DNA of 64,000 bases from Gemmatimonadales bacterium (lineage in GTDB: Bacteria > Gemmatimonadota > Gemmatimonadetes > Gemmatimonadales > GWC2-71-9), in NCBI GenBank assembly GCA_036500345.1, contig DASYCE010000031.1, positions 98,728 to 162,727 of the forward strand, written 5' to 3'. Positions 14,694 to 49,200 of the stretch are shown here, piece by piece. The notes under the pieces were generated by a model. It was not told where the DNA came from and made no database searches. It saw only the letters and a program-made list of their open reading frames with translations. Both the position numbers and the translations under genes were made by a program. The first letter of the stretch is position 1; each line of letters begins with the position of its first letter.

Positions 14694-15743
14694 CTACATA
14701 CTGCAATAGAGGATCCCGTCGACCCATCCAGGCGGTGTTGCATCGCCGATTCCTGCCACGCATGCATATGATGAGCCCTTGGCGAGCGCCGTCCCCACCC
14801 AGCCTCGCCGGCTGGTGGCCAGCACGCGCACGTCCGCCACTGGCGATGCTGCGAGCCCGAGCGAATCATCCGTCGACACATAGTGTCCGGCGCGGTCCTT
14901 CACCCGCTCGGCGGCCATCAGCGCCCGGAAGAGTGCGGAACGAGTGGCTGCGGCAGTCGGCGCAACCGGCGGCACCGGAGACGCACATGCCTCATGGGGC
15001 GCAGGGCGTTGCAGTGGCCGTGCCAGCGAAAAAAACTCGATCCGGTCGAGCGAGTCACTCGCCGAGACACCGAGAATGCCGGTCTCCGTGACCCTGAGCG
15101 GAGTAAACCCGACCGGCAGTTCGCTCTGGGCAATCCGCCGGCCATCGGCGGATGCTATCGCAAATACATGCCCTGCCAGCGGTGCGGACCAGAACAATGA
15201 TCCATCCTGCAGCGCAACGCGAACGGTGGTATCCGGGTAATGCGAGGCGAGTTGCCGGACGCAGGCGATCGCAGGAGCGTCCTCGACGCGTGACATAGTG
15301 CGGTTGACAAAGATTAGCCGACGGGACTGACTCCACTGATCCCCCTTCTGCATTACTCCCATCGGCGCGCCGGTCTTGCCATACCATTGCGTAGAACTCG
15401 TCGCAGGATCGTGCGCGCCCACAGAATCGCCGCTGGCAACGAGCTCAATGGTGACCGACTTTGCCTGAGCGCCTCCATCGATCGCGGTGCGGCGCACCAA
15501 CGCTCCGCTCCGGCGATAGACCCGGACCTCTCGCGGCATCGAGTACGCGATGGCAACCAGATCATTCCCGAGAAGTGCAGCATCGCTCACGCCGCTCGCG
15601 CTCGGCACGCCCCCCTTGGCGGAGGCGATGATCGACCACTGCGGATGCGTGGCGACCTTCCAGCTGGGTTGCTGCGCATCAAGCGACCCGAGATGGGTCC
15701 CCATGAGCATTCCAGCTGATGCGACGAATCGAACTCTGTTCAT
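14694..15743 (-). CDS. Hypothetical secreted protein, last gene of Cys-peptide/propeller cassette 1
   Basis: 349 aa with signal-like MNRVRFVASAGMLMGTHLGSLDAQQ. Its start overlaps the stop of the upstream propeller gene by 4 nt (15740..15743). No confident domain call. The C-terminus has a Cys pair (YACVAG...ILYC). Confidence 0.55.
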   Translation of the reverse strand: MNRVRFVASAGMLMGTHLGSLDAQQPSWKVATHPQWSIIASAKGGVPSASGVSDAALLGNDLVAIAYSMPREVRVYRRSGALVRRTAIDGGAQAKSVTIELVASGDSVGAHDPATSSTQWYGKTGAPMGVMQKGDQWSQSRRLIFVNRTMSRVEDAPAIACVRQLASHYPDTTVRVALQDGSLFWSAPLAGHVFAIASADGRRIAQSELPVGFTPLRVTETGILGVSASDSLDRIEFFSLARPLQRPAPHEACASPVPPVAPTAAATRSALFRALMAAERVKDRAGHYVSTDDSLGLAASPVADVRVLATSRRGWVGTALAKGSSYACVAGIGDATPPGWVDGILYCSM

Positions 15744-16888
15744 CGGGCTGCCTCCCTCACGCCGTTGCCGTCACCACGAATGAAACCACCGGTAGGCACC
15801 CAGTCGCATCCGGTTGGGGATACCACATACGAGTAAACGACCGATCGGACGCGATTCTGGCTGTTGACTTGTCGCGCCAGGACGCTCACCGTGTCGCCCC
15901 GAAAGAACGGGATCGGCGTGACATCTGTTTCAACCGGAAGTTCTGCGTCGACACACGCGTGATTGCCGTCCGGCGCGAGGAGTGCCAAATACGTTCGAAA
16001 CGCGCCGTATCGGCCGCCATGCCCGGCGGTACCGAGCATTTCCATGTCGACGTAGGCGATGAGGTAATTCCCGTCCGCCTGCCGATTGAGACCAGCTGAC
16101 GCCGATGCCAGCACCTGATTCGCATCGGTGGGTCGAAGCTTCTGTTGCCGCGCAACAAGATCGTCTGGCTGGCCCCGCCGCCGGGCTGCCGGGATCGGAA
16201 CGCTTCCCAACCACGCCCCGGCCGAATCCACAAAGTCGAGGCCGATTTCACCCGGCAGCAGCATCGCGAAGCCGGCGTCGTGAGGTGCAAGTTCCGAGAC
16301 GCCATACCCCATGAGCACGCCTGAGGCTCCGCGAAATCTCGTCGGCATCCGACCGATTGCATGAACGGAGTCGTGGGTCCATACCCATCGCCCCGCAATC
16401 CCCTCGGTCATGTGGAGGGCGAAGTACACAGTGTCGCCTTCGACCTGCCAGTCCTGACCAATGTCCTGCGCAGGTAGCGCTACCATTCGGTCAAAGCCGC
16501 CGGTCGACGCATCGAACACCTCCATTGCGTGCCGATTGACATCGACCACCGCCAGCAGCGAGTCGTGGGCGACCAGATGCAGCGGTCCGGGAAGCTGGAA
16601 TTCCCCGGGCCCACTCCCCGGCTTGCCAACGACACCAGCGAAGGCGCCGTTGCCACGAAAGTGCAGGACTCTCCGCGATTGCATGTCATTGACGAAATAG
16701 TCGCCGCGACCCGAATGCGCGACAAAGGCCGTGTACGCACCAAGCGGCATGGAGTCAGGGTCCTGCAGGACAACCGAATCGACCAGAGTGACCGTTGCGC
16801 CACGGCTGGATTTCGGCACTCGACGAATATGCGAGTCACCGTGGCACCCCATCACGACCACCACGGCGACCACGGTACGAAGACGCAT
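15740..16888 (-). CDS. 6-bladed beta-propeller family lipoprotein (TolB-like/NHL-like propeller)
   Basis: ORF-track entry 15740..17059 trimmed to ATG at 16888 (MRLRTVVAVVVVMGCHGD, lipobox). Family hallmark VVGKPGSGPGEFQLPG is shared with the proteins at 22090..23223 and 47986..49200. Confidence 0.65.
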   Translation of the reverse strand: MRLRTVVAVVVVMGCHGDSHIRRVPKSSRGATVTLVDSVVLQDPDSMPLGAYTAFVAHSGRGDYFVNDMQSRRVLHFRGNGAFAGVVGKPGSGPGEFQLPGPLHLVAHDSLLAVVDVNRHAMEVFDASTGGFDRMVALPAQDIGQDWQVEGDTVYFALHMTEGIAGRWVWTHDSVHAIGRMPTRFRGASGVLMGYGVSELAPHDAGFAMLLPGEIGLDFVDSAGAWLGSVPIPAARRRGQPDDLVARQQKLRPTDANQVLASASAGLNRQADGNYLIAYVDMEMLGTAGHGGRYGAFRTYLALLAPDGNHACVDAELPVETDVTPIPFFRGDTVSVLARQVNSQNRVRSVVYSYVVSPTGCDWVPTGGFIRGDGNGVREAAR

Positions 16889-17001: not shown

Positions 17002-17214
17002 TTACTGAAAGCAGTTGCACTTGCAGTCCGGATTGGTCTCGCATCCGGCGAGGTCCCAATCACAGACCCATACGCAGTCCTGAAATCCGAACACACCGAC
17101 CCAGTGAGTTTGCCGTGTGGTATCGGCGTGCGCCCGCGGCATGTGGCCCGCACCAAACACCAACATCGCTGCGACCGCCGCTGCGCCGAACCATCCGCTG
17201 CTCTTACGTGTCAT
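17002..17214 (-). CDS. Small secreted six-cysteine peptide (70-aa precursor)
   Basis: Trimmed to ATG at 17214, preceded on the minus strand by GGAGGACGCA-ATG (strong SD). MTRKSSGWFGAAAVAAMLVFGAGHMPRAHA is signal-like. The predicted mature part DTTRQTHWVGVFGFQDCVWVCDWDLAGCETNPDCKCNCFQ has 6 Cys in the last 25 residues. Confidence 0.55.
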   Translation of the reverse strand: MTRKSSGWFGAAAVAAMLVFGAGHMPRAHADTTRQTHWVGVFGFQDCVWVCDWDLAGCETNPDCKCNCFQ

Positions 17215-17704
17215 TGCGTCCTCCGGGAATGGGGTTGGATGAATCACCAACGGGGGGAAGGTGGAACAACTGGCGGAGAAACGGTCGCGCTTCCGAGACC
17301 GTGACCGGTTTCGCAAAATGTCCACGGACGAATGGCAGTACTGCAGGTGAATCACTATGGATGACCAATGAGCGTCCTGCGATCACTGCGTCCGGAACCT
17401 CATGCTGAAGCGCCAGTTGCCGGCGTTCATAGTCCGTTGGCGGCCTCGACAGCACGAAAGCGACCGCCCCGGGATGCCGACGGCGCGCTTGCAGCAGGGA
17501 GTAGAGCGGACGATCGCAGCTGAGGCAGTCAGCCGGATCGACGACGACGATCGCGAACGCATCCGTATCGGTAACCACGGCCTGGAGCACTCGCCCATCG
17601 ACCAGCCGCGTGCTTGCCACCGATCGCGACCGTCCGCAAGACCACGCAGCACACACCACGGCCGCCCCGAGTGCAATTTTCCGCAGCGCTGATTGTGATC
17701 GCAT
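17204..17704 (-). CDS. Thioredoxin-fold-like CxxC protein with signal peptide/possible lipobox
   Basis: 166 aa. MRSQSALRKIALGAAVVCAAWSCG is signal-like. AIVVVDPADCLSCDRPLYSLL has the beta1-CxxC-alpha1 arrangement of TlpA/redoxin-type proteins. 11-nt overlap with the Cys-peptide gene. The domain call is tentative. Confidence 0.5.
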   Translation of the reverse strand: MRSQSALRKIALGAAVVCAAWSCGRSRSVASTRLVDGRVLQAVVTDTDAFAIVVVDPADCLSCDRPLYSLLQARRRHPGAVAFVLSRPPTDYERRQLALQHEVPDAVIAGRSLVIHSDSPAVLPFVRGHFAKPVTVSEARPFLRQLFHLPPVGDSSNPIPGGRNDT

Positions 17705-18822: not shown

Positions 18823-21800
18823 TTGCACCCCACTTCCCCACCCAATCCGGCAGGTTCGTTGACCGATCTCCGATCGCGCGTTCAAGAGTCGCTGGCGGGG
18901 AGCTATACCCTCGAGCACGAGCTCGGCGGCGGCGGGATGTCCCGCGTCTTCGTCGCCCAGGAAAACCGCCTCGAACGCCGGGTGGTGGTCAAGGTCCTCT
19001 CCCCCGAACTCGCCGCCGGGATGTCGCTGCCGCGGTTCGAGCGCGAGATCCGCGTCGCCGCCTCGCTGCAGCAGGCCAACATCGTCCAGGTCCTCGCCGC
19101 AGGCGACATCGACGGGCTGCCGTACTACACGATGCCCTACATCGAGGGCGAATCGCTTCGCGCCCGCCTCGGCCGCGGCGCGCTGTCGATCGCCGAGATC
19201 GTCAGCATCCTCCGCGACGTGTCGCGCGCGCTGGTCTACGCCCACGAGCGCGGCGTGGTCCATCGCGACATCAAGCCCGACAATGTCCTGCTCTCCGGGC
19301 ACACTGCGGTCGTCACCGATTTCGGCATTGCCAAGGCAATCAGCGCCGCCCAGACCGGCGGCGATCGCCCCGATGGCGGGGTTGCGCAGGCGACGCTCAC
19401 CCAGCTCGGCACCGCCATCGGCACCCCGGCGTACATGGCGCCGGAACAGGCCGCCGGCGATCCGTCGACCGACCATCGCGCCGATATCTACGCCTTCGGC
19501 TGCATGGCGTACGAGCTGATCGCGAGCCGGCCGCCGTTCCCGAACCTCCCGCCGCACAAGCTCGTCTTCGCGCACATGAGCGAAGCACCGCAGCCGGTCG
19601 GCGAACTCCGCGCCGATTGCCCGCCGGCGCTCGCCGCGCTGGTGATGCAGTGTCTCGCGAAGGATCCTATCCAGCGCCCGGCGAATGCCACCGAGCTGCT
19701 CCATCGCCTCGATGCGGTGGCATCGACATCCGGTACCGGCGGCGCCCTCCCGGCGATCCTGATCGGCGGGCCGAGGACGATCTGGCGCGCGCTGGGGATT
19801 TATGCCCTCGCGTTCGTCGCGGTCGCGATTCTCGCTCGTGCGGCGATCATCGCGATCGGTCTCCCCGACTGGGTCTTCACCGGCGCCCTCATCGTGATGG
19901 CGCTGGGACTCCCCGTGGTCCTCTTCACCGCGTACACCCAGGTCATCGCGCGCCGAGCAGCGACCGCGACGCCGACCTTCACCCCCGGCGGCACACAGGC
20001 CGCAGCACCGCAGGGAACGATGGCGACGCTCGCGATCAAGGCGAGCCCGCACCTCTCGTGGCAGCGCACCGCACGCGGCGGGATGATCGCCGTCGGTGTC
20101 TTCGTGCTGCTCGTCGCCGGCTTCATGACACTCCGCGCCCTCGGCATCGGCCCCGCAGGGTCGCTCCTCGCTGCCGGGAAGTTTGCTGCCAACGACAAGA
20201 TCGTCGTCGCCGCATTCGACTCGCCCGGCGCCGATTCGTCACTCGGATCGACGATCGCCGAAGCGGTTCGGACCACGCTCTCCGAGAGCCGCGCGCTGCA
20301 CGTCATACCGACCACGACGATCGTCTCGACACTCGAACAGATGAAGCGCCCCGACACCGCGCGTGTCGACTTCGCCACGGCGCGCGAGATCGCCCAGCGC
20401 AACGGTGCCAAGGCGGTCGTCGCCGGAACGATCGTCCCGGCTGGAAGCGGCTACGTCATCACGATACGGCTCGTCGCGGCCGAGAGCGGCAATGAGCTCG
20501 CGTCGTTCAGCGAATCGGCCAACAACACCGGCGACCTGATTCCCGCGGTCGATCGGGTGACCAAGTCGCTCCGTCGCAAGATCGGTGAATCGCTCAAGTC
20601 GGTGCGCGAGTCGCCACCGCTCCAGCAGGTGACGACGGCGTCGATTGGCGCCCTCCGCAGCTACGCCGCGGCGATGCGCACCAACGATGTGGTCGGCGAC
20701 TACCCGGCCGCGATCCGTCAATTCCACGACGCCATTCAGCAGGACAGCAACTTCGCGATGGCCTGGGTGCAGCTCGCCTATTCGCTGCAGACCCTTGGCG
20801 GCGCCGCCAACATCGCGGCAACCCACGCCGCTCTCACCACTGCCTTCCGACTGCGCGACCGGCTGCCTGAGCGGGAGCGGTACAACGTCGAGGGTGGCTA
20901 TTACCTCGACGTCCCGAATGATCGCGCCAAGGCGATCGTCGCCCTCCGTCGCGCAGTGGAGCTCGACTCCACCAACGACGACGCGGCGAATACCCTTGCC
21001 GTGACACTCGGTGAAACGCGTGACACCGGTGCCATCGCGGCGTACCGGCTCGCGTTGCGATCTGACTCGGCCGACGGCACGATCCTCTACAACCTCGCGA
21101 CGGAGTTCTCCCAGATCGGGCACCACTCGGGGGTCGATTCGATATTGGCGCTCCTTGCCAGCCGGCATGTGCCGTTTCCAACCGGCCCGATCCGATTCCC
21201 CGAATACTGGCAGCGGCGACAGTACGATTCGGCAGGGCTTGTCGCCCGTGCCGGCGTCGATTCCGCATCTCCGTTCCGCGTGGCGACGTCACTGGGCGGA
21301 CTGAGCCAGCTCGCGTCGGTGGAAGGGCGCCTGCACGACGCCGAGCGACTGTATGCTCAATCGAATGCCGGCAAGGCACGCGCGCGCGGCGATACCGTCA
21401 GTCCATACCAGGTGGCGTACGTCCAGGCGCTCTACGATGGAATTGACCGTCGAGACGTTCCGCGCGGTCTCGCCGACCTCGACTCCACGATGCGCGCAAC
21501 CCCTGTGGGTTCCACTCCGGTCGCCACTGACCAGAGCAATTGGGCGGCGCTGGCGTACGGCCTTCTGGGAAACGCCACCAGAGCGCGCGAGATACTCAAC
21601 CAGCATGAGGCTCGGCTCGATACACTGGCGCGCCGTCAGCAAACGGTGATGTCGGCGCGGGTACGTGGAACGATCGCGATGGCCGAGGGGAAGACCGACA
21701 GCGCCGTCAGCTGGTTCCGTCGCGGTGACGTCGAGGCCGATGGGTTGCCGACCGGCAAGTGCGAGGTCTGCACGCCGTACCTGATCGGCCTCGCGTTCGA

Positions 21801-22068
21801 TCACGGTCACCAGGCCGACTCCGCGCGGAAGTACTGGACCCAGTTCGTCGAGATGAACGGCAATGGCCGCATCAGCGCCGACCCGTATTTTTTGGCCCCG
21901 ACGCTCTACCGTCTCGGCGAGCTCTACCAGCAGGCGGGAGACTCGAAGCACGCCATCGGGTATTACAGTCGGTTTGCTGATCTCTGGGCGAAGGCCGACC
22001 CGGACCTGCAACCGCAGGTCGCCAAGGCGCGTGCACAGGTGGCGGAGTTGCTCAAGGCGAAGGGATAG
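18823..22068 (+). CDS. Serine/threonine protein kinase with transmembrane segments and C-terminal TPR-repeat region
   Basis: 1081 aa. Hanks kinase motifs LGGGGMSRVF, VVKVL, HRDIKPDNVLL, DFGIAKA, GTPAYMAPEQ. TM helices around IWRALGIYALAFVAVAILA. Long TPR-like C-terminus. The start codon is non-ATG (TTG at 18823; an in-frame TTG at 18859 is an alternative). Confidence 0.9.
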   Translation: MHPTSPPNPAGSLTDLRSRVQESLAGSYTLEHELGGGGMSRVFVAQENRLERRVVVKVLSPELAAGMSLPRFEREIRVAASLQQANIVQVLAAGDIDGLPYYTMPYIEGESLRARLGRGALSIAEIVSILRDVSRALVYAHERGVVHRDIKPDNVLLSGHTAVVTDFGIAKAISAAQTGGDRPDGGVAQATLTQLGTAIGTPAYMAPEQAAGDPSTDHRADIYAFGCMAYELIASRPPFPNLPPHKLVFAHMSEAPQPVGELRADCPPALAALVMQCLAKDPIQRPANATELLHRLDAVASTSGTGGALPAILIGGPRTIWRALGIYALAFVAVAILARAAIIAIGLPDWVFTGALIVMALGLPVVLFTAYTQVIARRAATATPTFTPGGTQAAAPQGTMATLAIKASPHLSWQRTARGGMIAVGVFVLLVAGFMTLRALGIGPAGSLLAAGKFAANDKIVVAAFDSPGADSSLGSTIAEAVRTTLSESRALHVIPTTTIVSTLEQMKRPDTARVDFATAREIAQRNGAKAVVAGTIVPAGSGYVITIRLVAAESGNELASFSESANNTGDLIPAVDRVTKSLRRKIGESLKSVRESPPLQQVTTASIGALRSYAAAMRTNDVVGDYPAAIRQFHDAIQQDSNFAMAWVQLAYSLQTLGGAANIAATHAALTTAFRLRDRLPERERYNVEGGYYLDVPNDRAKAIVALRRAVELDSTNDDAANTLAVTLGETRDTGAIAAYRLALRSDSADGTILYNLATEFSQIGHHSGVDSILALLASRHVPFPTGPIRFPEYWQRRQYDSAGLVARAGVDSASPFRVATSLGGLSQLASVEGRLHDAERLYAQSNAGKARARGDTVSPYQVAYVQALYDGIDRRDVPRGLADLDSTMRATPVGSTPVATDQSNWAALAYGLLGNATRAREILNQHEARLDTLARRQQTVMSARVRGTIAMAEGKTDSAVSWFRRGDVEADGLPTGKCEVCTPYLIGLAFDHGHQADSARKYWTQFVEMNGNGRISADPYFLAPTLYRLGELYQQAGDSKHAIGYYSRFADLWAKADPDLQPQVAKARAQVAELLKAKG

Positions 22069-22089: not shown

Positions 22090-23223
22090 CTACTGTCGCG
22101 CGAATCTCGCCCGATACAGATCGATGAACCAGTAGCCGCCCTGCGTCTCGCGCAGCTCATAGACGGTGCTGTCGTCGACGAACCCTCGGAGCGGACGGTC
22201 GATCCGCGCAGTCAGCAGCAGATCACCGGTGTGACTATCGAGCAACTGGATGATTCCGTCGTACGAACCGATGTGATAGAGATCGTCAGGACGCGTCGGC
22301 TTCGCATCGGCAGCGGTTTGATCCGCGCGCCAATCCGCTGCCGCCACATCGTACAATCCCCAGAGCACACCATCCTTCGTTTCGCGCACGCCGTGCATCT
22401 GCGGGAATGGCCGCTCGGCGCGGTCGCCTGCGTCGACCACTCGGTTGAATCGCGCGGTGTCGTACGGTGTGAACCAGTCGGGTGATCGGTCGATCGATCG
22501 TTCCAGCGTGCCGTCGACGTTCCAGAGTTCGAAATGCAGCTTGTAGTAGAGCGGTGCTGCCCAGAAGGTGTGCGCTTCATTCCCCGGGCCGAGGGCGTAA
22601 TAGCGGCCGTGGCCGTGCGGATCGCGTGGCGCCGAGGTTCCGATCCACCGGCGATCGCTGCCGTTCGAATCGATCACCACCAGCGGCTGTTCCTCGTAGA
22701 ACGCGTTCGCCACCACCACGCCATCATCGGGGAGAGTGACGCCGCGGTTGAGCAGCCACGGTTTCGCCGTGCGCGCGGTCGTCTCACGCATCGAGCTTCC
22801 ATCGAGCCATCCGAGCCGGTCGCCGGCCCCCAGGAGGAGGACGCGGTCGCCATGCCAGTGATAGGCACCCCGCACCAGCTGGTTTTCGCCGGGTCCCTGA
22901 CCGCGACGGCCAATCGCCCGGGCCGGCGCGCCGACCGAATCGAAGAGCGCCGCGACGCCGTCGACGACGGTCGGTGCCACGATGTATCGCCCATCATCGA
23001 GTCGCGTGAGAAAGGCTCGGCGATCGAGGAGGATCGAATCCGACGGCGAGCCGAGCGTGCCAATTCGCGTGAGTGCAAGGGTGCAGTCGACGCAGGTCAC
23101 TCCGCGCTCGATCACGGTGGCGCCGATCGCCGATTCGTACCCCGCGCTCGGCGCGGCCGCGTTGCGGCAGCCGGTAGCGAGGAGCGCGAGTGCGGCGGTG
23201 CGAGCCGCCGAAGCGTGCGTCAC
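22090..23223 (-). CDS. 6-bladed beta-propeller family lipoprotein
   Basis: ORF-track entry 22090..23310 trimmed to GTG at 23223 (VTHASAARTAALALLATGC, lipobox). This GTG shares 1 nt with the TAG stop of the upstream Cys-peptide gene. Motif IGRRGQGPGENQLV is paralogous to 15740..16888 and 47986..49200. Confidence 0.7.
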   Translation of the reverse strand: MTHASAARTAALALLATGCRNAAAPSAGYESAIGATVIERGVTCVDCTLALTRIGTLGSPSDSILLDRRAFLTRLDDGRYIVAPTVVDGVAALFDSVGAPARAIGRRGQGPGENQLVRGAYHWHGDRVLLLGAGDRLGWLDGSSMRETTARTAKPWLLNRGVTLPDDGVVVANAFYEEQPLVVIDSNGSDRRWIGTSAPRDPHGHGRYYALGPGNEAHTFWAAPLYYKLHFELWNVDGTLERSIDRSPDWFTPYDTARFNRVVDAGDRAERPFPQMHGVRETKDGVLWGLYDVAAADWRADQTAADAKPTRPDDLYHIGSYDGIIQLLDSHTGDLLLTARIDRPLRGFVDDSTVYELRETQGGYWFIDLYRARFARQ

Positions 23224-23468
23224 TAGTTGGGGCAAGCCTGGTGGATTTCGCACCCCGCCTGCGCCGGAGATCCGTGGCAGCCGAGGTTGTCGCCGATGCA
23301 GGTGCGGCACTCGGAGCCGGTGGGAGTGCTGCTGAAGTAATGGACGATATCCTCTTCGTCGATGCAGTGCCCGTAGGTCCCAGTCTCTTCGGCCTTGACT
23401 CGCGCCGACCGGATCATCGCAGCGCCAGCCAGTACAGTGATTGCTGCCAGAATCTGCCTTGTTCGCAT
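23223..23468 (-). CDS. Small secreted six-cysteine peptide (81-aa precursor)
   Basis: ATG at 23468 is preceded on the minus strand by CAGGAGGATATCTCG-ATG (strong SD). MRTRQILAAITVLAGAAMIRSARVKA is signal-like. The mature part contains 6 Cys (GHC...SECRTC...LGC...AGC...QAC). Confidence 0.6.
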   Translation of the reverse strand: MRTRQILAAITVLAGAAMIRSARVKAEETGTYGHCIDEEDIVHYFSSTPTGSECRTCIGDNLGCHGSPAQAGCEIHQACPN

Positions 23469-23732
23469 CGAGATATCCTCCTGTCGTGGTTTGCCATGGA
23501 GCGGGGTCTCAGAGAGGTATCGGGCGCGCCGCCCCAGTACGAGACACCATAAGGGACGTGCAGTATCAGGAGGGGTGGCACAAGGGGGGGGCGCAGTCGC
23601 GCCCTCTGTGCCAGGGGGGCCGGCGGCCCCTCAGGTTGAAAGTCGCGCAACTGTTACCGGGTAAATGCCCGACACCGCGGTCCGGGACGGTATACTCTGC
23701 GGCTCGAAGTGAACGGCCGACCGGGGGGACGG

Positions 23733-25662: not shown

Positions 25663-26364
25663 TCATCCGATTGACCACCACCAGCTCGACTGGTAAATCG
25701 TCATGGCGCGTTCCTGCCAAGTGGCTTTCTGCCACATCGCTTGGCGTGGCGAGCCACCGTTTTTTGCGGACTCCTCTAGGCGATTGTAAACATCCTCAGT
25801 AATAATTGACGCATAACTCCCATCGCGCAGGCCGCACAGCTTGGCTGCATAATTCGCCGCCCGACCAACCCACACTAAGTCGTTAGTGCCGCGAATGCCG
25901 GTGCGGGCCACGAACAACTTGCTTGTGTCAATGCCGACTACGTGCTGGACCTTGTACGTTGTGCTGGTGTAGCGCTTTTGAATCTCCGTATTCAGGATAT
26001 TCTTTACGGCCCAGTTGAGCTTGAGGGCGGTCTTCGCGGCCTGTGAATTCTTTGACTCTCCGATGTACACAGCCATCACACGATCGCCGTCAAACGAAGT
26101 AATATCACCGCCGTTGTCACGGATGATCCGACATGCCAGCCTCAGGTAGCTCTTGTAGACCTCAGCAGCAAACCAATCCTTGTAGCCGTTAACAAGATCC
26201 GTCGAGTCAACAAGATCCGCATAGAGCACGGTCGCGTCCAGCTCGACCCCATCGTTATCTAGTTTCACCGACTCCGTCGTGGGAATCGTGGCACCCTTGC
26301 GACGCTTCCACTCCGACGAAAGAATCGCGATCACTTCTGCCCGCAGCTCAGCCGCATTGGCCAT
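25663..26364 (-). CDS. Stand-alone class III nucleotidyl cyclase (Pycsar PycC-like candidate)
   Basis: 233 aa. Cyclase core motifs: ATVLYADLVDSTDL (metal Asp), GDITSFDGDRVMAVY (second Asp), VARTGIRGTNDLVWVGRAANYAAKLC. No sensor or TM domain. 8 nt downstream of a cNMP-binding effector gene. Lower GC than the flanks. Confidence 0.85.
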   Translation of the reverse strand: MANAAELRAEVIAILSSEWKRRKGATIPTTESVKLDNDGVELDATVLYADLVDSTDLVNGYKDWFAAEVYKSYLRLACRIIRDNGGDITSFDGDRVMAVYIGESKNSQAAKTALKLNWAVKNILNTEIQKRYTSTTYKVQHVVGIDTSKLFVARTGIRGTNDLVWVGRAANYAAKLCGLRDGSYASIITEDVYNRLEESAKNGGSPRQAMWQKATWQERAMTIYQSSWWWSIG

Positions 26365-26372
26365 ACCAACTC

Positions 26373-27338
26373 CTATCGTCTTCCCAGTCTATCGATGTCA
26401 GCGCGAATTCTCGCACAACAAGGCGCCAGTCTCTGTGCAAGCGGCTTGGGGCCGCGACGCACATAGGGCACGCAAGTGACTCCGAGTAAATCGGACGGCA
26501 GCCGAAGGTCCGTCCCCTTGGGCAACAGCACGAACACGCGCTCGCGACCAAGCGCACCCATGAGCAACCCAATTTCGAAGATCACGTTGTCTCGCGGAGA
26601 CGGCTTCTTCTTGCCCCGGGACACTGTAATATCGTCAGCAGTCAGCAGCAGAGCGGCGCAATCCGCATCCTTTGAAAGCTCAACCAGGCTTTCAATGAAC
26701 GTGCGGGACGTCTCGAACACCCCGTCACTCCATAGCCGTACTATCAGATCCGCACCCTGAACAGCATCCCGGATGCCGGTCGCAACCGGCAATCCTTCAG
26801 TCGAAGACCCGATAAACAGAATCGGTTGATCGTTTGGTGTTCGAATAAATCGATTCCGATCCCTGAGGCGGCGGGCAATTTCCACCGCAATCCGTCTCCA
26901 CAGAATGGGATAGTCGTCTGCGATGCGCGAAAACTTGTCCTCCGTGATCCGCATCGCGGTCACCCGTTCTGTCGCTGTGATCGTAGCGCTCCGCCGCGCT
27001 AGCGAGTCAACAAGGGCCAGCTCACCGACATGCGTCCCCGCCTCACGCGTTGCGATGTCACGGCCGTTTACACTGATTGCGACGGCACCGGAGAGCAACA
27101 GAAACAGATCGTTGTCCGATGCATTCTGAATCGAGAGCGACTCGCCGGCGTTGTAGTGGCGGATCGTACCCGCTTTGATCAATAGGCTAGCGAGTGCAGC
27201 ATCGCCGGAAACGAGGGTTTGCTGTTCGACAACTTGGCGCAAGCGCCGTTTACCGGACTTGCCCGTAAACGTGAGGCCAGGATTCGTCGACCGCTGCTTG
27301 GCTGCGCGGCGCGGCCGAAGCTGACGGCTCCTCATCAT
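26373..27338 (-). CDS. Cyclic-nucleotide-binding domain fused to a TIR-like (PF10137-type) domain; predicted cNMP-gated NADase-type effector
   Basis: 321 aa. CNB fold with phosphate-binding cassette GTHVGELALVDSLARRSATITA. C-terminal ILFIGSSTEGLPVA...AALLLTADD...PRDNVIFEIGLLMGALGRERVFVLLP matches the bacterial TIR-like pattern, including the conserved Glu. Confidence 0.85.
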   Translation of the reverse strand: MMRSRQLRPRRAAKQRSTNPGLTFTGKSGKRRLRQVVEQQTLVSGDAALASLLIKAGTIRHYNAGESLSIQNASDNDLFLLLSGAVAISVNGRDIATREAGTHVGELALVDSLARRSATITATERVTAMRITEDKFSRIADDYPILWRRIAVEIARRLRDRNRFIRTPNDQPILFIGSSTEGLPVATGIRDAVQGADLIVRLWSDGVFETSRTFIESLVELSKDADCAALLLTADDITVSRGKKKPSPRDNVIFEIGLLMGALGRERVFVLLPKGTDLRLPSDLLGVTCVPYVRRGPKPLAQRLAPCCARIRADIDRLGRR

Positions 27339-47985: not shown

Positions 47986-49200
47986 TCACTGACCGGCGGC
48001 CAGGCGGAATATCTCCACGCTCTCCACGTCGCTGTCGTCGCGGGCAATCCCGAGGACGTAGTCCGCACCGATCTCCGTCGGCGTGAACCGCGCGGGCATG
48101 ACCACATCGTCGACCCATAGGCCCTGCGGGTCGAACACGGACCACGTGGTCGGCGTGTCGGAGCTAGGGCTGGAGCTCCATCCGTCACCCATACCTGCTT
48201 CGCGAACCCAGAGCCTGCCAACGCGATCGGCAATCAGCTGCGAAAACGCAGGGAGCGTGGCAAACGACGGGGCAGCCTTGATCGCCGCCAACACAGTTGC
48301 GGAATCGGCAGATCCCCGGGTCGACGACTGCAGGATCGCAAAACTGTCGATGACCGCCCTGGTCACCTTCAGCGGCGACCATTGGCGACGAATGATGTGA
48401 TCCAGGTGCCCGCTGAGTGAATAGACGCGGATGGAATACTCTGCCGAAAAACCCGCGAACACCGCTCCACGATTTGCCGCGAAGAAGGCGGCCGGAGCGA
48501 AGAGCGGTGCGACCGGCTCATCGTGCGCCATTTGCAGCACGTACGCAGGGAACGCACCGATCGACCCGGCGACAGCATTCTTGCCGCCGACGATCGCCAG
48601 GTAATAGGAGTCGACCAATCGCATACCCGGAGACGGCATCGCTGGCCTTTTCGTGCTAGCGATGAGTCGGTAGCCACCAGGCATGAGCGCAAGCACCAGG
48701 CGGTTCCCCGGGGTGATCTGAATGGGCGGATTGATCGCGTCGAGAAAATGGATGAAGCGACCGGTATTGGTGAAGTACTCGATCGAACCCCAGGGATCGC
48801 CGGCCGCGAGGGTGTCGCCCGGAAGAATCGAAAATGCCCCCAGTGCACCGAATTCCCCGGGGCCGTCTCCTTTTCGTCCGACGGCCTTGATGAAACCACC
48901 TGCAGGAGTGAAGAATCGAAGTTGTCGAGACCCGGCGTCCGCGACGACGATCCGGCCATCGGCGAGACGGCCAGCTCCGGCGATCCGGCTGAATTGGTGG
49001 CTGGTGTCTGCATTCGGGCCGATGATCAACAGCGGAGATGCAAGCAAGCGCTCCGCATGGGCGCCGGCACGCTGCGGACGTGAGTTTTCCACGATCCGGA
49101 TGCCGGCGCTGTCGCGGCTTCCCTGCGCGCTCAGACCGTGCAATCGGCCACCCGCGCATAGCACGATTGCGACGACAACGCCGGTGCCCGACCGTCTCAC
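47986..49200 (-). CDS. 6-bladed beta-propeller family protein (secreted)
   Basis: 404 aa with signal-like MRRSGTGVVVAIVLCAGGRLHGLSAQ. Hallmark VGRKGDGPGEFGALG. Paralog of 15740..16888 and 22090..23223, but with no adjacent Cys-peptide gene. Confidence 0.7.
   Translation of the reverse strand: MRRSGTGVVVAIVLCAGGRLHGLSAQGSRDSAGIRIVENSRPQRAGAHAERLLASPLLIIGPNADTSHQFSRIAGAGRLADGRIVVADAGSRQLRFFTPAGGFIKAVGRKGDGPGEFGALGAFSILPGDTLAAGDPWGSIEYFTNTGRFIHFLDAINPPIQITPGNRLVLALMPGGYRLIASTKRPAMPSPGMRLVDSYYLAIVGGKNAVAGSIGAFPAYVLQMAHDEPVAPLFAPAAFFAANRGAVFAGFSAEYSIRVYSLSGHLDHIIRRQWSPLKVTRAVIDSFAILQSSTRGSADSATVLAAIKAAPSFATLPAFSQLIADRVGRLWVREAGMGDGWSSSPSSDTPTTWSVFDPQGLWVDDVVMPARFTPTEIGADYVLGIARDDSDVESVEIFRLAAGQ

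Follow-up and report, generated by a model that had tools for sequence, protein, structure and literature searches.

A conserved gene pair encoding a six-cysteine secreted mini-protein and a predicted beta-propeller lipoprotein in a soil Gemmatimonadota bacterium

The 64,000-nucleotide stretch of DNA from a Gemmatimonadales bacterium analysed here (hereafter the window) carries on its minus strand a pair of genes, termed cassette 2, in which pep2 (23223..23468), encoding the 81-residue precursor of a secreted Cys/His-rich mini-protein, is followed by the gene of a predicted 377-residue beta-propeller lipoprotein of a divergent DUF5128/NHL-type branch (propeller 2, 22090..23223). The pair is real, conserved and previously unannotated in this soil bacterium, and it recurs across the phylum, often beside a dsbA gene. 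It is kept in four lineages, represented by the window and by the fetched loci L002, L001 and L066 (loci are designated by L numbers). A screen for Cys-rich open reading frames (ORFs) and a propeller phylogeny support the pairing as a functional, non-accidental link.

The mini-protein gene and its propeller partner

The pep2 gene was delimited from the ORF list, independent gene calls, the G+C content at third codon positions (GC3; likewise GC1 and GC2) and the ratio of nonsynonymous to synonymous substitutions (dN/dS). A Shine-Dalgarno sequence, AGGAGG, lies at 23477..23482, 8 nt ahead of the ATG, and translation of the ORF gives the 81-residue precursor MRTRQILAAITVLAGAAMIRSARVKAEETGTYGHCIDEEDIVHYFSSTPTGSECRTCIGDNLGCHGSPAQAGCEIHQACPN, ended by a TAG stop at 23223..23225. 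The N-terminus contains two Arg followed by a 14-residue hydrophobic stretch and ends with VKA before EE. By pattern match it has the layout of a Sec pre-protein, that is a positive n-region (MRTRQ), an h-region of 10-15 hydrophobic residues (ILAAITVLAGAAMI) and small residues at positions -3 and -1 (RSARVKA before EE), and equivalent layouts were found in the relatives from L001 (PVRA before TQ) and L002 (TLKA before DT). According to the -3/-1 rule, the predicted signal peptide covers approximately residues 1-26 (23391..23468) and leaves a mature region of about 55 residues (23226..23390). The six Cys of pep2 (C35, C54, C57, C64, C73 and C79) are all located past the hydrophobic N-terminus. 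The AGGAGG, the signal-like N-terminus and the six mature Cys had been noted in a preliminary description made by reading the sequence and were confirmed here.

The word-indexed search yielded two relatives of pep2, and a third one, in L066, was reached via the closest propeller representatives. Their amino acid identities to pep2 are 84% (L002), 46-48% (L001) and approximately 28% (L066), and all of them keep the six Cys together with H43, H65 and H76. Between the window and L002, the Nei-Gojobori dN/dS was 0.092/0.526 = 0.17 for the whole peptide, 0.10 for the mature peptide and 0.12 for propeller 2. Six public soil-metagenome contigs carry the identical sequence, on which gene callers placed an 81-residue and a 377-residue gene overlapping by 1 nt.

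An ORF of this size might be a chance frame in GC-rich DNA, in which case the true propeller gene would begin upstream at GTG 23310. Indeed, spurious ORFs are plentiful in high-GC DNA and the ORF list contains a 406-residue frame starting at 23310 that overlaps the small ORF. However, the 87-nt extension (23224..23310) has a non-coding-like composition (GC1 0.86, GC3 0.59), whereas GC3 in the pep2 frame is 0.76 and exceeds both GC1 and GC2; the longer start was rejected on this ground. It would moreover place 29 residues ahead of the lipoprotein signal peptide. Given also that the six Cys and three His are kept at 46-85% identity with a dN/dS of 0.17, and that independent gene callers concur on pep2, a chance frame is hardly credible. 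These results demonstrate that pep2 is a genuine gene and that purifying selection acts on it.

The GTG at 23223 opens the propeller 2 frame (VTHASAARTAALALLATGC...), which runs to 22090 and whose 377-residue product starts with MTHASAARTAALALLATGC; the gene is supported by this frame, gene calls, an AlphaFold2 model and profile searches. The segment MTHASAARTAALALLATG followed by C19 (codon 23167..23169) fits the PROSITE-type lipobox pattern. A Cys follows the hydrophobic segment in eight of the ten closest relatives, which are all those with the N-terminus included, the other two not covering this region; more distant family members have ordinary signal peptides. By the lipobox criterion of the Lgt/Lsp pathway, propeller 2 is thus a predicted lipoprotein.

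On its own, propeller 2 gave no Pfam or NCBIfam match at E <= 0.1 and none in PADLOC, did not reach the gathering score of PF17170, and 24 of its 40 best relatives match this family (DUF5128, a six-bladed beta-propeller) with a best E-value of 2.2e-9. The profile of these 40 members matched NHL domains of the PDB (6d69, E = 1e-27; TRIM3, E = 1.6e-23) and the Bacteroides exported protein 4raa (E = 2e-7). The AlphaFold2 model (pLDDT 90.6, pTM 0.87), with 25 strands and two short helices, confidently predicts a beta-propeller. NHL propellers were the top Foldseek matches, with TM scores of only 0.46-0.51, and seven-bladed WD40 proteins scored alike. Whereas the word-indexed search returned only propeller 2 and one relative, an exhaustive HMMER search with the two-sequence propeller profile recovered, at E <= 1e-3, 2115 representatives (at 50% identity), whose length is almost always 350-400 residues. 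Long matches in this search were considered as peptide-propeller fusions and rejected, their N-terminal extensions resembling miscalled starts. In a scan of one genome per species with the 10-sequence propeller alignment, relatives were nearly confined to metagenome-assembled genomes of Gemmatimonadota, from Gemmatimonadales and Longimicrobiales.

The columns conserved within the family hold Gly, Trp, Pro and Asp; they also include the GxGPGE signature that marks the first NHL-like blade (G108-Q-G-P-G-E113, 22885..22902) and the CxxC of the first hairpin, at the start of the propeller (C44-V-D-C47, 23083..23094). C47 is invariant and C44 present in at least 90% of 40 members, both being invariant in the ten closest, and G108, G110, P111 and E113 are invariant in both alignments. 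Neither alignment revealed a conserved His or another catalytic set. The conserved columns being structural, the propeller fits a scaffold better than an enzyme. Propeller 2 thus resembles the PF17170/NHL propellers (4raa; the NHL domains of TRIM2/3/71, Brat and Thin) in its fold, its GxGPGE-type signature and its exported or lipoprotein context, and differs from them in lacking its own Pfam or NCBIfam match, in the near-invariant N-terminal CxxC and in its almost wholly Gemmatimonadota distribution. On these alignments and profiles it is assigned to a divergent, Gemmatimonadota-expanded DUF5128/NHL branch with an N-terminal CxxC. Membership of DUF5128 explains little by itself, because that family has no known function; a literature search on DUF5128/PF17170 found nothing. 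In some Gemmatimonadota metagenome-assembled genomes (L049, L020, L047, L055 and L013), DUF5128-type propeller genes were also seen in tandem, four to six to an array; most of these propellers have neither a CxxC nor a Cys-rich neighbour.

The conserved leader or promoter region of pep2 (23469..23595, minus strand), which includes the AGGAGG, is also shared with L002. Approximately 125 nt of it are about 88% identical to L002 (9875..10000), in lineages whose synonymous sites differ by 38%, and the similarity breaks off abruptly upstream. This abrupt end indicates that the leader, the peptide gene and the propeller gene move as a unit. A CCTCC stretch in the leader is able to pair with the GGAGG of the Shine-Dalgarno sequence. 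The leader may act as a promoter or in the control of translation; no covariation was found in it, its folding z-score (-0.35) was not significant, no Rfam family matches the region, and a promoter and terminator scan was uninformative.

Recurrence of the pair and classes of Cys-rich partners

As stated in the preliminary description, the TAG stop of pep2 and the GTG start of propeller 2 share one nucleotide (TAGTG, common G23223). A stop/start overlap was found in three of the six pairs examined, of 1 nt in the window and of 4 nt in both L002 (GTGA) and L056, the latter with a long-form peptide (see below). Gene order and overlap are conserved across lineages with differing flanks, and the overlap may reflect translational coupling of pep2 and propeller 2.

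To examine the enrichment of Cys-rich small ORFs upstream of propellers, a check proposed in the preliminary description, we screened the window and 47 loci picked only by their propeller (48 sequences) for ORFs of 40-200 residues with a signal-like N-terminus, at least four mature Cys, GC3 > GC2 and GC2 < 0.6. Of the 19 ORFs that passed, nine terminate no more than 600 nt upstream of a propeller domain; this zone makes up 6.7% of the sequence (binomial p = 1.4e-6). The remaining plausible ORFs are mostly located just downstream of a propeller (L009, L019 and L017). The recurrence of two cassettes 6 kb apart in the window, on which the argument for function was originally based, is by itself weak evidence, because the propeller family is very abundant: 108 family ORFs, often in tandem, were detected in 507 kb (window and fetched loci) with the hidden Markov model of 40 members. 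What stands of that argument is that the pairing is non-accidental, as judged from the four lineages, the enrichment and the match of peptide class to propeller clade described below.

Beside its DUF5128-type propeller, pep2 carries after the signal peptide the full motif of a Cys/His class, C...H-x-F...G-x-H...C-x(2-5)-H-x2-C. Short forms of this class, with about 55 mature residues, are encoded in the window, L002, L001, L066 and L016, and C9, H17, F19, C31, H39, C47, H50 and C53 (mature numbering) are invariant in these five members. Their Cys counts are always even (6, 6, 6, 6 and 4), and the two Cys missing in L016 are lost together, as expected of a disulfide pair. Long forms, with about 140 mature residues, were found in L009, L011, L019 (two), L025, L026, L033, L040 (two), L045, L056 (two), L058 (two) and L059, and are extended by a C-terminal domain in which an R...Q...GC motif is invariant. 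Homology of the short and long forms is plausible from the moderate hhalign matches between them (E = 7e-5 at 63% probability; E = 2.7e-4 at 41% probability). The number of mature Cys in long forms (e.g. L059 4001-4429 and L056 4001-4528) is odd, either 5 or 7, and the single invariant Cys of their C-terminal domain, in Q-L-x-G-C, may remain free as a thiol or form a disulfide with another molecule.

The long-form proteins had no Pfam, NCBIfam, PADLOC or PDB sequence match, and a database-wide search with their profile returned 12 proteins only, all unnamed. Likewise, pep2 and pep1, the peptide of cassette 1 (described below), had no match in Pfam (E <= 0.1), NCBIfam or PADLOC scans. A PDB sequence search with the short-form profile gave only marginal gamma-carbonic-anhydrase matches (E = 0.07), taken as chance, and scans of metagenome contigs for relatives found none. 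Other Cys-rich proteins adjoining propellers are unrelated in sequence to the pep2 class: pep1, a class comprising L021 and the 64-residue peptide of L059 (L059-64), L059-56, L017-69 and L011-97, among which the only likeness, seen by eye, is that of L021 to L059-64. Sequence comparison thus resolves several Cys-rich classes, no fewer than four or five, that are unrelated to one another, rather than one diversifying family.

Comparison of propeller phylogeny with peptide class was a further check proposed. We placed 58 full-length propellers in a neighbour-joining tree. The four whose partner is of the short form group together to the exclusion of all others, and eight long-form partners fall in one 19-member propeller clade, the majority of which have a long-form neighbour. 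Peptide class thus tracks propeller clade. Of the diversifying peptide family with cognate propellers that had been suggested, this correspondence was borne out; the single family was not, and pep1 is not visibly a member of the pep2 class.

In two of the four lineages, L001 (P0002) and L066 (P0011), a dsbA gene precedes the short-form peptide (82 residues in L066) and the propeller, and in L062 (P0006) a dsbA lies directly upstream of a sister propeller with no peptide; these three propellers are among the nearest database relatives of propeller 2. These DsbA/Thioredoxin_4 genes, at L001 3905-4555, L066 601-1275 and L062 217-882, are directly upstream of the pair or of the propeller. A larger cluster was seen in L059 (609-7667; also in L060 and L061). 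It begins with an extracytoplasmic function (ECF) sigma factor, a 281-residue protein, a 56-residue six-Cys secreted peptide and a 179-residue CPHC protein, and continues with a CxxC propeller, a long-form Cys/His protein, an 808-residue TonB-dependent-receptor-like protein and a 64-residue six-Cys peptide; the L061 version adds DsbA. The gene content of these clusters hints at surface signalling or uptake.

A possible two-subunit complex and its alternatives

We tentatively propose, at a little under an even chance, that a DsbA-folded periplasmic mini-subunit binds the co-translated propeller lipoprotein and that its His triad may bind a metal or small ligand. The self-contained bicistronic operon would yield from its first gene an 81-residue pre-protein exported by Sec and matured to a mini-protein of about 55 residues, stapled by three disulfides and displaying three invariant His. 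The propeller gene would be started by reinitiation at the overlapping TAG/GTG and would give a lipid-anchored six-bladed NHL/DUF5128-type propeller with the near-invariant CxxC on its first hairpin. The two products would associate in the periplasm at a ratio of roughly 1:1, with the propeller as membrane-anchored scaffold and the mini-protein as an accessory subunit whose folding would require oxidative disulfide formation. Such a requirement would account for the dedicated dsbA at the head of related operons. Carried on a core made rigid by disulfides, the His triad would most probably bind a metal ion or another small ligand. The sequence data establish both genes and the selection acting on them, their export signals, the propeller fold, the conservation of the pair, the enrichment, the agreement of peptide class with propeller clade and the linkage to dsbA; the binding of one product to the other, the pairing of the Cys, the binding of a metal and any role in the cell are what we infer from these.

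Several observations weigh against this proposal. Although the translational coupling put forward in the preliminary description agrees with the overlaps in the window and L002, the genes do not overlap in L001, L066 and L058, where spacers of 49, 93 and 47 nt separate them. A Cys-rich neighbour was seen for no more than about 13 of some 100 propellers, and about 85%, many of them CxxC-bearing, have none, so that a partner of this kind is not a general requirement of the propeller. No dsbA is adjacent to the pair in the window or L002, and a search for RNA runs containing the locus found none. Modelled singly, pep2 gave a poor AlphaFold2 model (pLDDT 54.5), confident only in a helix spanning residues 2-28. 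Finally, it is the His pattern alone that points to metal binding.

The same arrangement could be that of a secreted disulfide-rich effector, such as a bacteriocin-like toxin or a released signal, with a cognate immunity, receptor or export-maturation propeller, diversification of both then resulting from strain conflict. This would agree with the several sequence-unrelated Cys-rich secreted classes found next to propellers (pep1, L021 with L059-64, L059-56, L017-69 and L011-97), with the size, fast divergence and tandem arrays of the propeller family, with the ECF sigma factor and TonB-dependent receptor of the L059 cluster and with the correspondence of peptide class to propeller clade. We nevertheless regard it as doubtful, as the mature peptide has a low dN/dS (0.10) and shows no sign of diversifying selection between the window and L002, no dedicated exporter, GG-type leader or toxin/immunity domain was found (Pfam, NCBIfam and PADLOC), and translational coupling would suggest matched stoichiometry rather than an excess of toxin. 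Alternatively, the propeller might be an enzyme that modifies the peptide, of the NHL-fold peptidyl-alpha-hydroxyglycine lyase (PAL) or cofactor-forming amine dehydrogenase type, the mini-protein being its substrate or a cofactor-bearing small subunit comparable to the methylamine dehydrogenase light chain. The propeller profile does weakly match the PAL domain of the peptide-amidating enzyme PAM (3fvz, E = 0.0013), aromatic, His and Cys residues are invariant in the peptide, and the architecture recalls methylamine dehydrogenase, with its small disulfide-rich subunit, propeller subunit and thioredoxin-fold helper MauD. However, the propeller lacks the conserved His/Tyr/Arg set of a PAL-like Zn site, its conserved columns being structural, pep2 has no Trp pair for a tryptophan tryptophylquinone (TTQ) or cysteine tryptophylquinone (CTQ), and no MauG-like, radical S-adenosylmethionine (SAM) or other maturase gene occurs in the neighbourhoods of the pairs, so that we consider this reading very unlikely. 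Both the effector and the enzyme are made less likely by the low dN/dS, by the lack of genes for an exporter or a maturase and by a propeller without a catalytic residue set.

The two genes might also be merely adjacent, independent in function under a common promoter, and recur through the sheer abundance of propellers. The 108 often tandem family ORFs in 507 kb, the large fraction of propellers lacking a Cys-rich neighbour and the dsbA-propeller locus L062, in which the propeller can stand alone without a peptide, are compatible with this. It is, however, unlikely in view of the enrichment, whose p value allows for propeller density, of the conservation of order and overlap despite differing flanks, and of the agreement between peptide class and propeller clade.

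The proposed complex of mini-protein and propeller can be compared with known systems. In methylamine dehydrogenase, MauB is the propeller heavy chain, MauA a small disulfide-rich light chain and MauD a thioredoxin-like protein; the light chain has two Trp forming TTQ and about 12 Cys, and mauG, mauD and mauE are neighbours. The likeness lies in a periplasmic propeller, a small multiply disulfide-bonded subunit and a thioredoxin-fold gene in the operon, and is one of analogy, not of membership. No sequence similarity was found, pep2 has zero Trp and six Cys, MauG, MauE and amicyanin genes are missing, and MauB is seven-bladed and not a lipoprotein. Hence pep2 was rejected as a light chain of this type, having no Trp, only six Cys and no mau neighbours. 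The E. coli arylsulfate sulfotransferase AssT is a periplasmic beta-propeller with a dedicated DsbL/DsbI pair, and likewise the propellers of L001, L066 and L062, though not that of the window, are encoded beside a dedicated DsbA paralogue. AssT, however, has no small partner subunit and the Pfam scan shows no AssT-family homology here. The pair has none of the traits that define methylamine dehydrogenase or the AssT system.

Small six-Cys precursors are known in the heat-stable enterotoxin STa, which is Sec- and DsbA-dependent, and in SCIFF, a radical-SAM ribosomally synthesized and post-translationally modified peptide (RiPP) with six Cys in forty-five residues. Like pep2, both are small six-Cys precursors and STa also has a Sec signal and DsbA-dependent folding, but neither shows sequence similarity to pep2 or is paired with a propeller, and pep2 adds three invariant His. 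SCIFF moreover lacks a signal peptide and no radical-SAM maturase is near pep2. The assignment of pep2 to SCIFF or other radical-SAM Cys-rich RiPPs was therefore discarded, given its Sec signal, the lack of a radical-SAM gene in the pair neighbourhoods and the lack of an NCBIfam match. A comparable arrangement is that of the small NVEALA proteins (PF14055) of Bacteroides, which probably adjoin DUF5128/BF3164 propellers in multi-copy arrays; there too the gene of a small exported protein would lie beside that of a DUF5128-type propeller, though in another phylum. As neither pep2 nor pep1 gave a Pfam match at E <= 0.1, they are not NVEALA members. Literature searches on NVEALA, on Gemmatimonadota with cysteine-rich or propeller proteins and on this pairing found nothing relevant.

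Other loci of the window and significance

Cassette 1 comprises pep1 (17002..17214, minus strand), a 70-residue six-Cys secreted mini-protein supported by its ORF, a JGI gene call (L003 16255-16467) and a GC3 of 0.70, and the gene of a 382-residue DUF5128 propeller lipoprotein without CxxC (15740..16888, minus strand; PF17170, E = 3e-7). The like architecture claimed for the two cassettes thus holds for a six-Cys precursor followed by a propeller, but not for the overlap, as the genes of cassette 1 are approximately 113 nt apart. The dissimilarity of pep2 and pep1, also claimed, was borne out by BLASTP (E = 0.99). A third propeller, at 47986..49200, matches PF17170 directly. Compared by BLASTP, propeller 2 gave E = 0.003 with the cassette-1 propeller and 2e-4 with the third one, over the first blade(s) only, and hhalign of the propeller 2 family with the cassette-1 propeller gave E = 6e-9 over the first ~113 columns only. 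The GxGPGE stretch is the part common to the three, and CxxC is missing from the cassette-1 and third propellers. Since the similarity is restricted to the first blade(s), the propellers of the window are distant paralogues, and the paralogy asserted earlier stands at superfamily level, though not as close kinship.

Next to cassette 1, a predicted 166-residue lipoprotein with CLSC (17204..17704, minus strand) overlaps the start of pep1 by 11 nt. It had no Pfam, NCBIfam or PADLOC match and is not similar to the L059 CPHC protein; a thioredoxin fold was considered for both proteins (166 and 179 residues) and is unsupported, only sub-threshold matches being found and the two proteins being dissimilar to each other. 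Directly downstream of the cassette-1 propeller, and overlapping it by 4 nt, lies the gene of a 349-residue secreted protein (14694..15743, minus strand), which has no family match and is not detected by the propeller model. Possibly it is a highly divergent propeller, or else a further partner.

Cassette 2 is flanked by a gene of about 1070 residues for a Ser/Thr kinase with TPR repeats (18823..22068, plus strand), which is convergent and ends 22 nt from the propeller 2 gene. This neighbour is also found in L002, which may be simple synteny. On the other side of cassette 2, some 2 kb upstream, lies a complete Pycsar anti-phage pair (25663..27338, minus strand), made up of the PycC cyclase (25663..26364; PADLOC PDLC00766, E = 7e-97) and PycTIR, a cNMP-binding TIR effector (26373..27338; PADLOC match, E = 7e-98); this pair is missing from the equivalent position of L002.

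Gemmatimonadota are abundant in soil and poorly studied. Exported DUF5128/NHL-type propellers, which form tandem arrays in this phylum and number 2115 representatives in the present branch alone, are among the most expanded protein families without known function. A conserved, co-diversifying partner and a dedicated dsbA provide, for at least one clade, the testable hypothesis of a heteromeric, disulfide-dependent and possibly metal-binding complex. The analysis also brings to light some five families of small, secreted, Cys-rich proteins that lack annotation and are largely missed by gene callers and databases. Were the pairing mere co-transcription, the result would be an ordinary annotation of two hypothetical proteins. 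It is conceivable, though decidedly unlikely, that the pair represents an undescribed, Gemmatimonadota-specific class of periplasmic two-subunit proteins. In such a class, a DsbA-folded His-triad mini-subunit holding a metal or protein-derived cofactor would dock on an NHL-type propeller lipoprotein whose CxxC would complete the site or exchange disulfides, and the short and long forms would have co-evolved with the propeller clades. If true, this class would offer the first functional handle on the very large DUF5128 propeller family.

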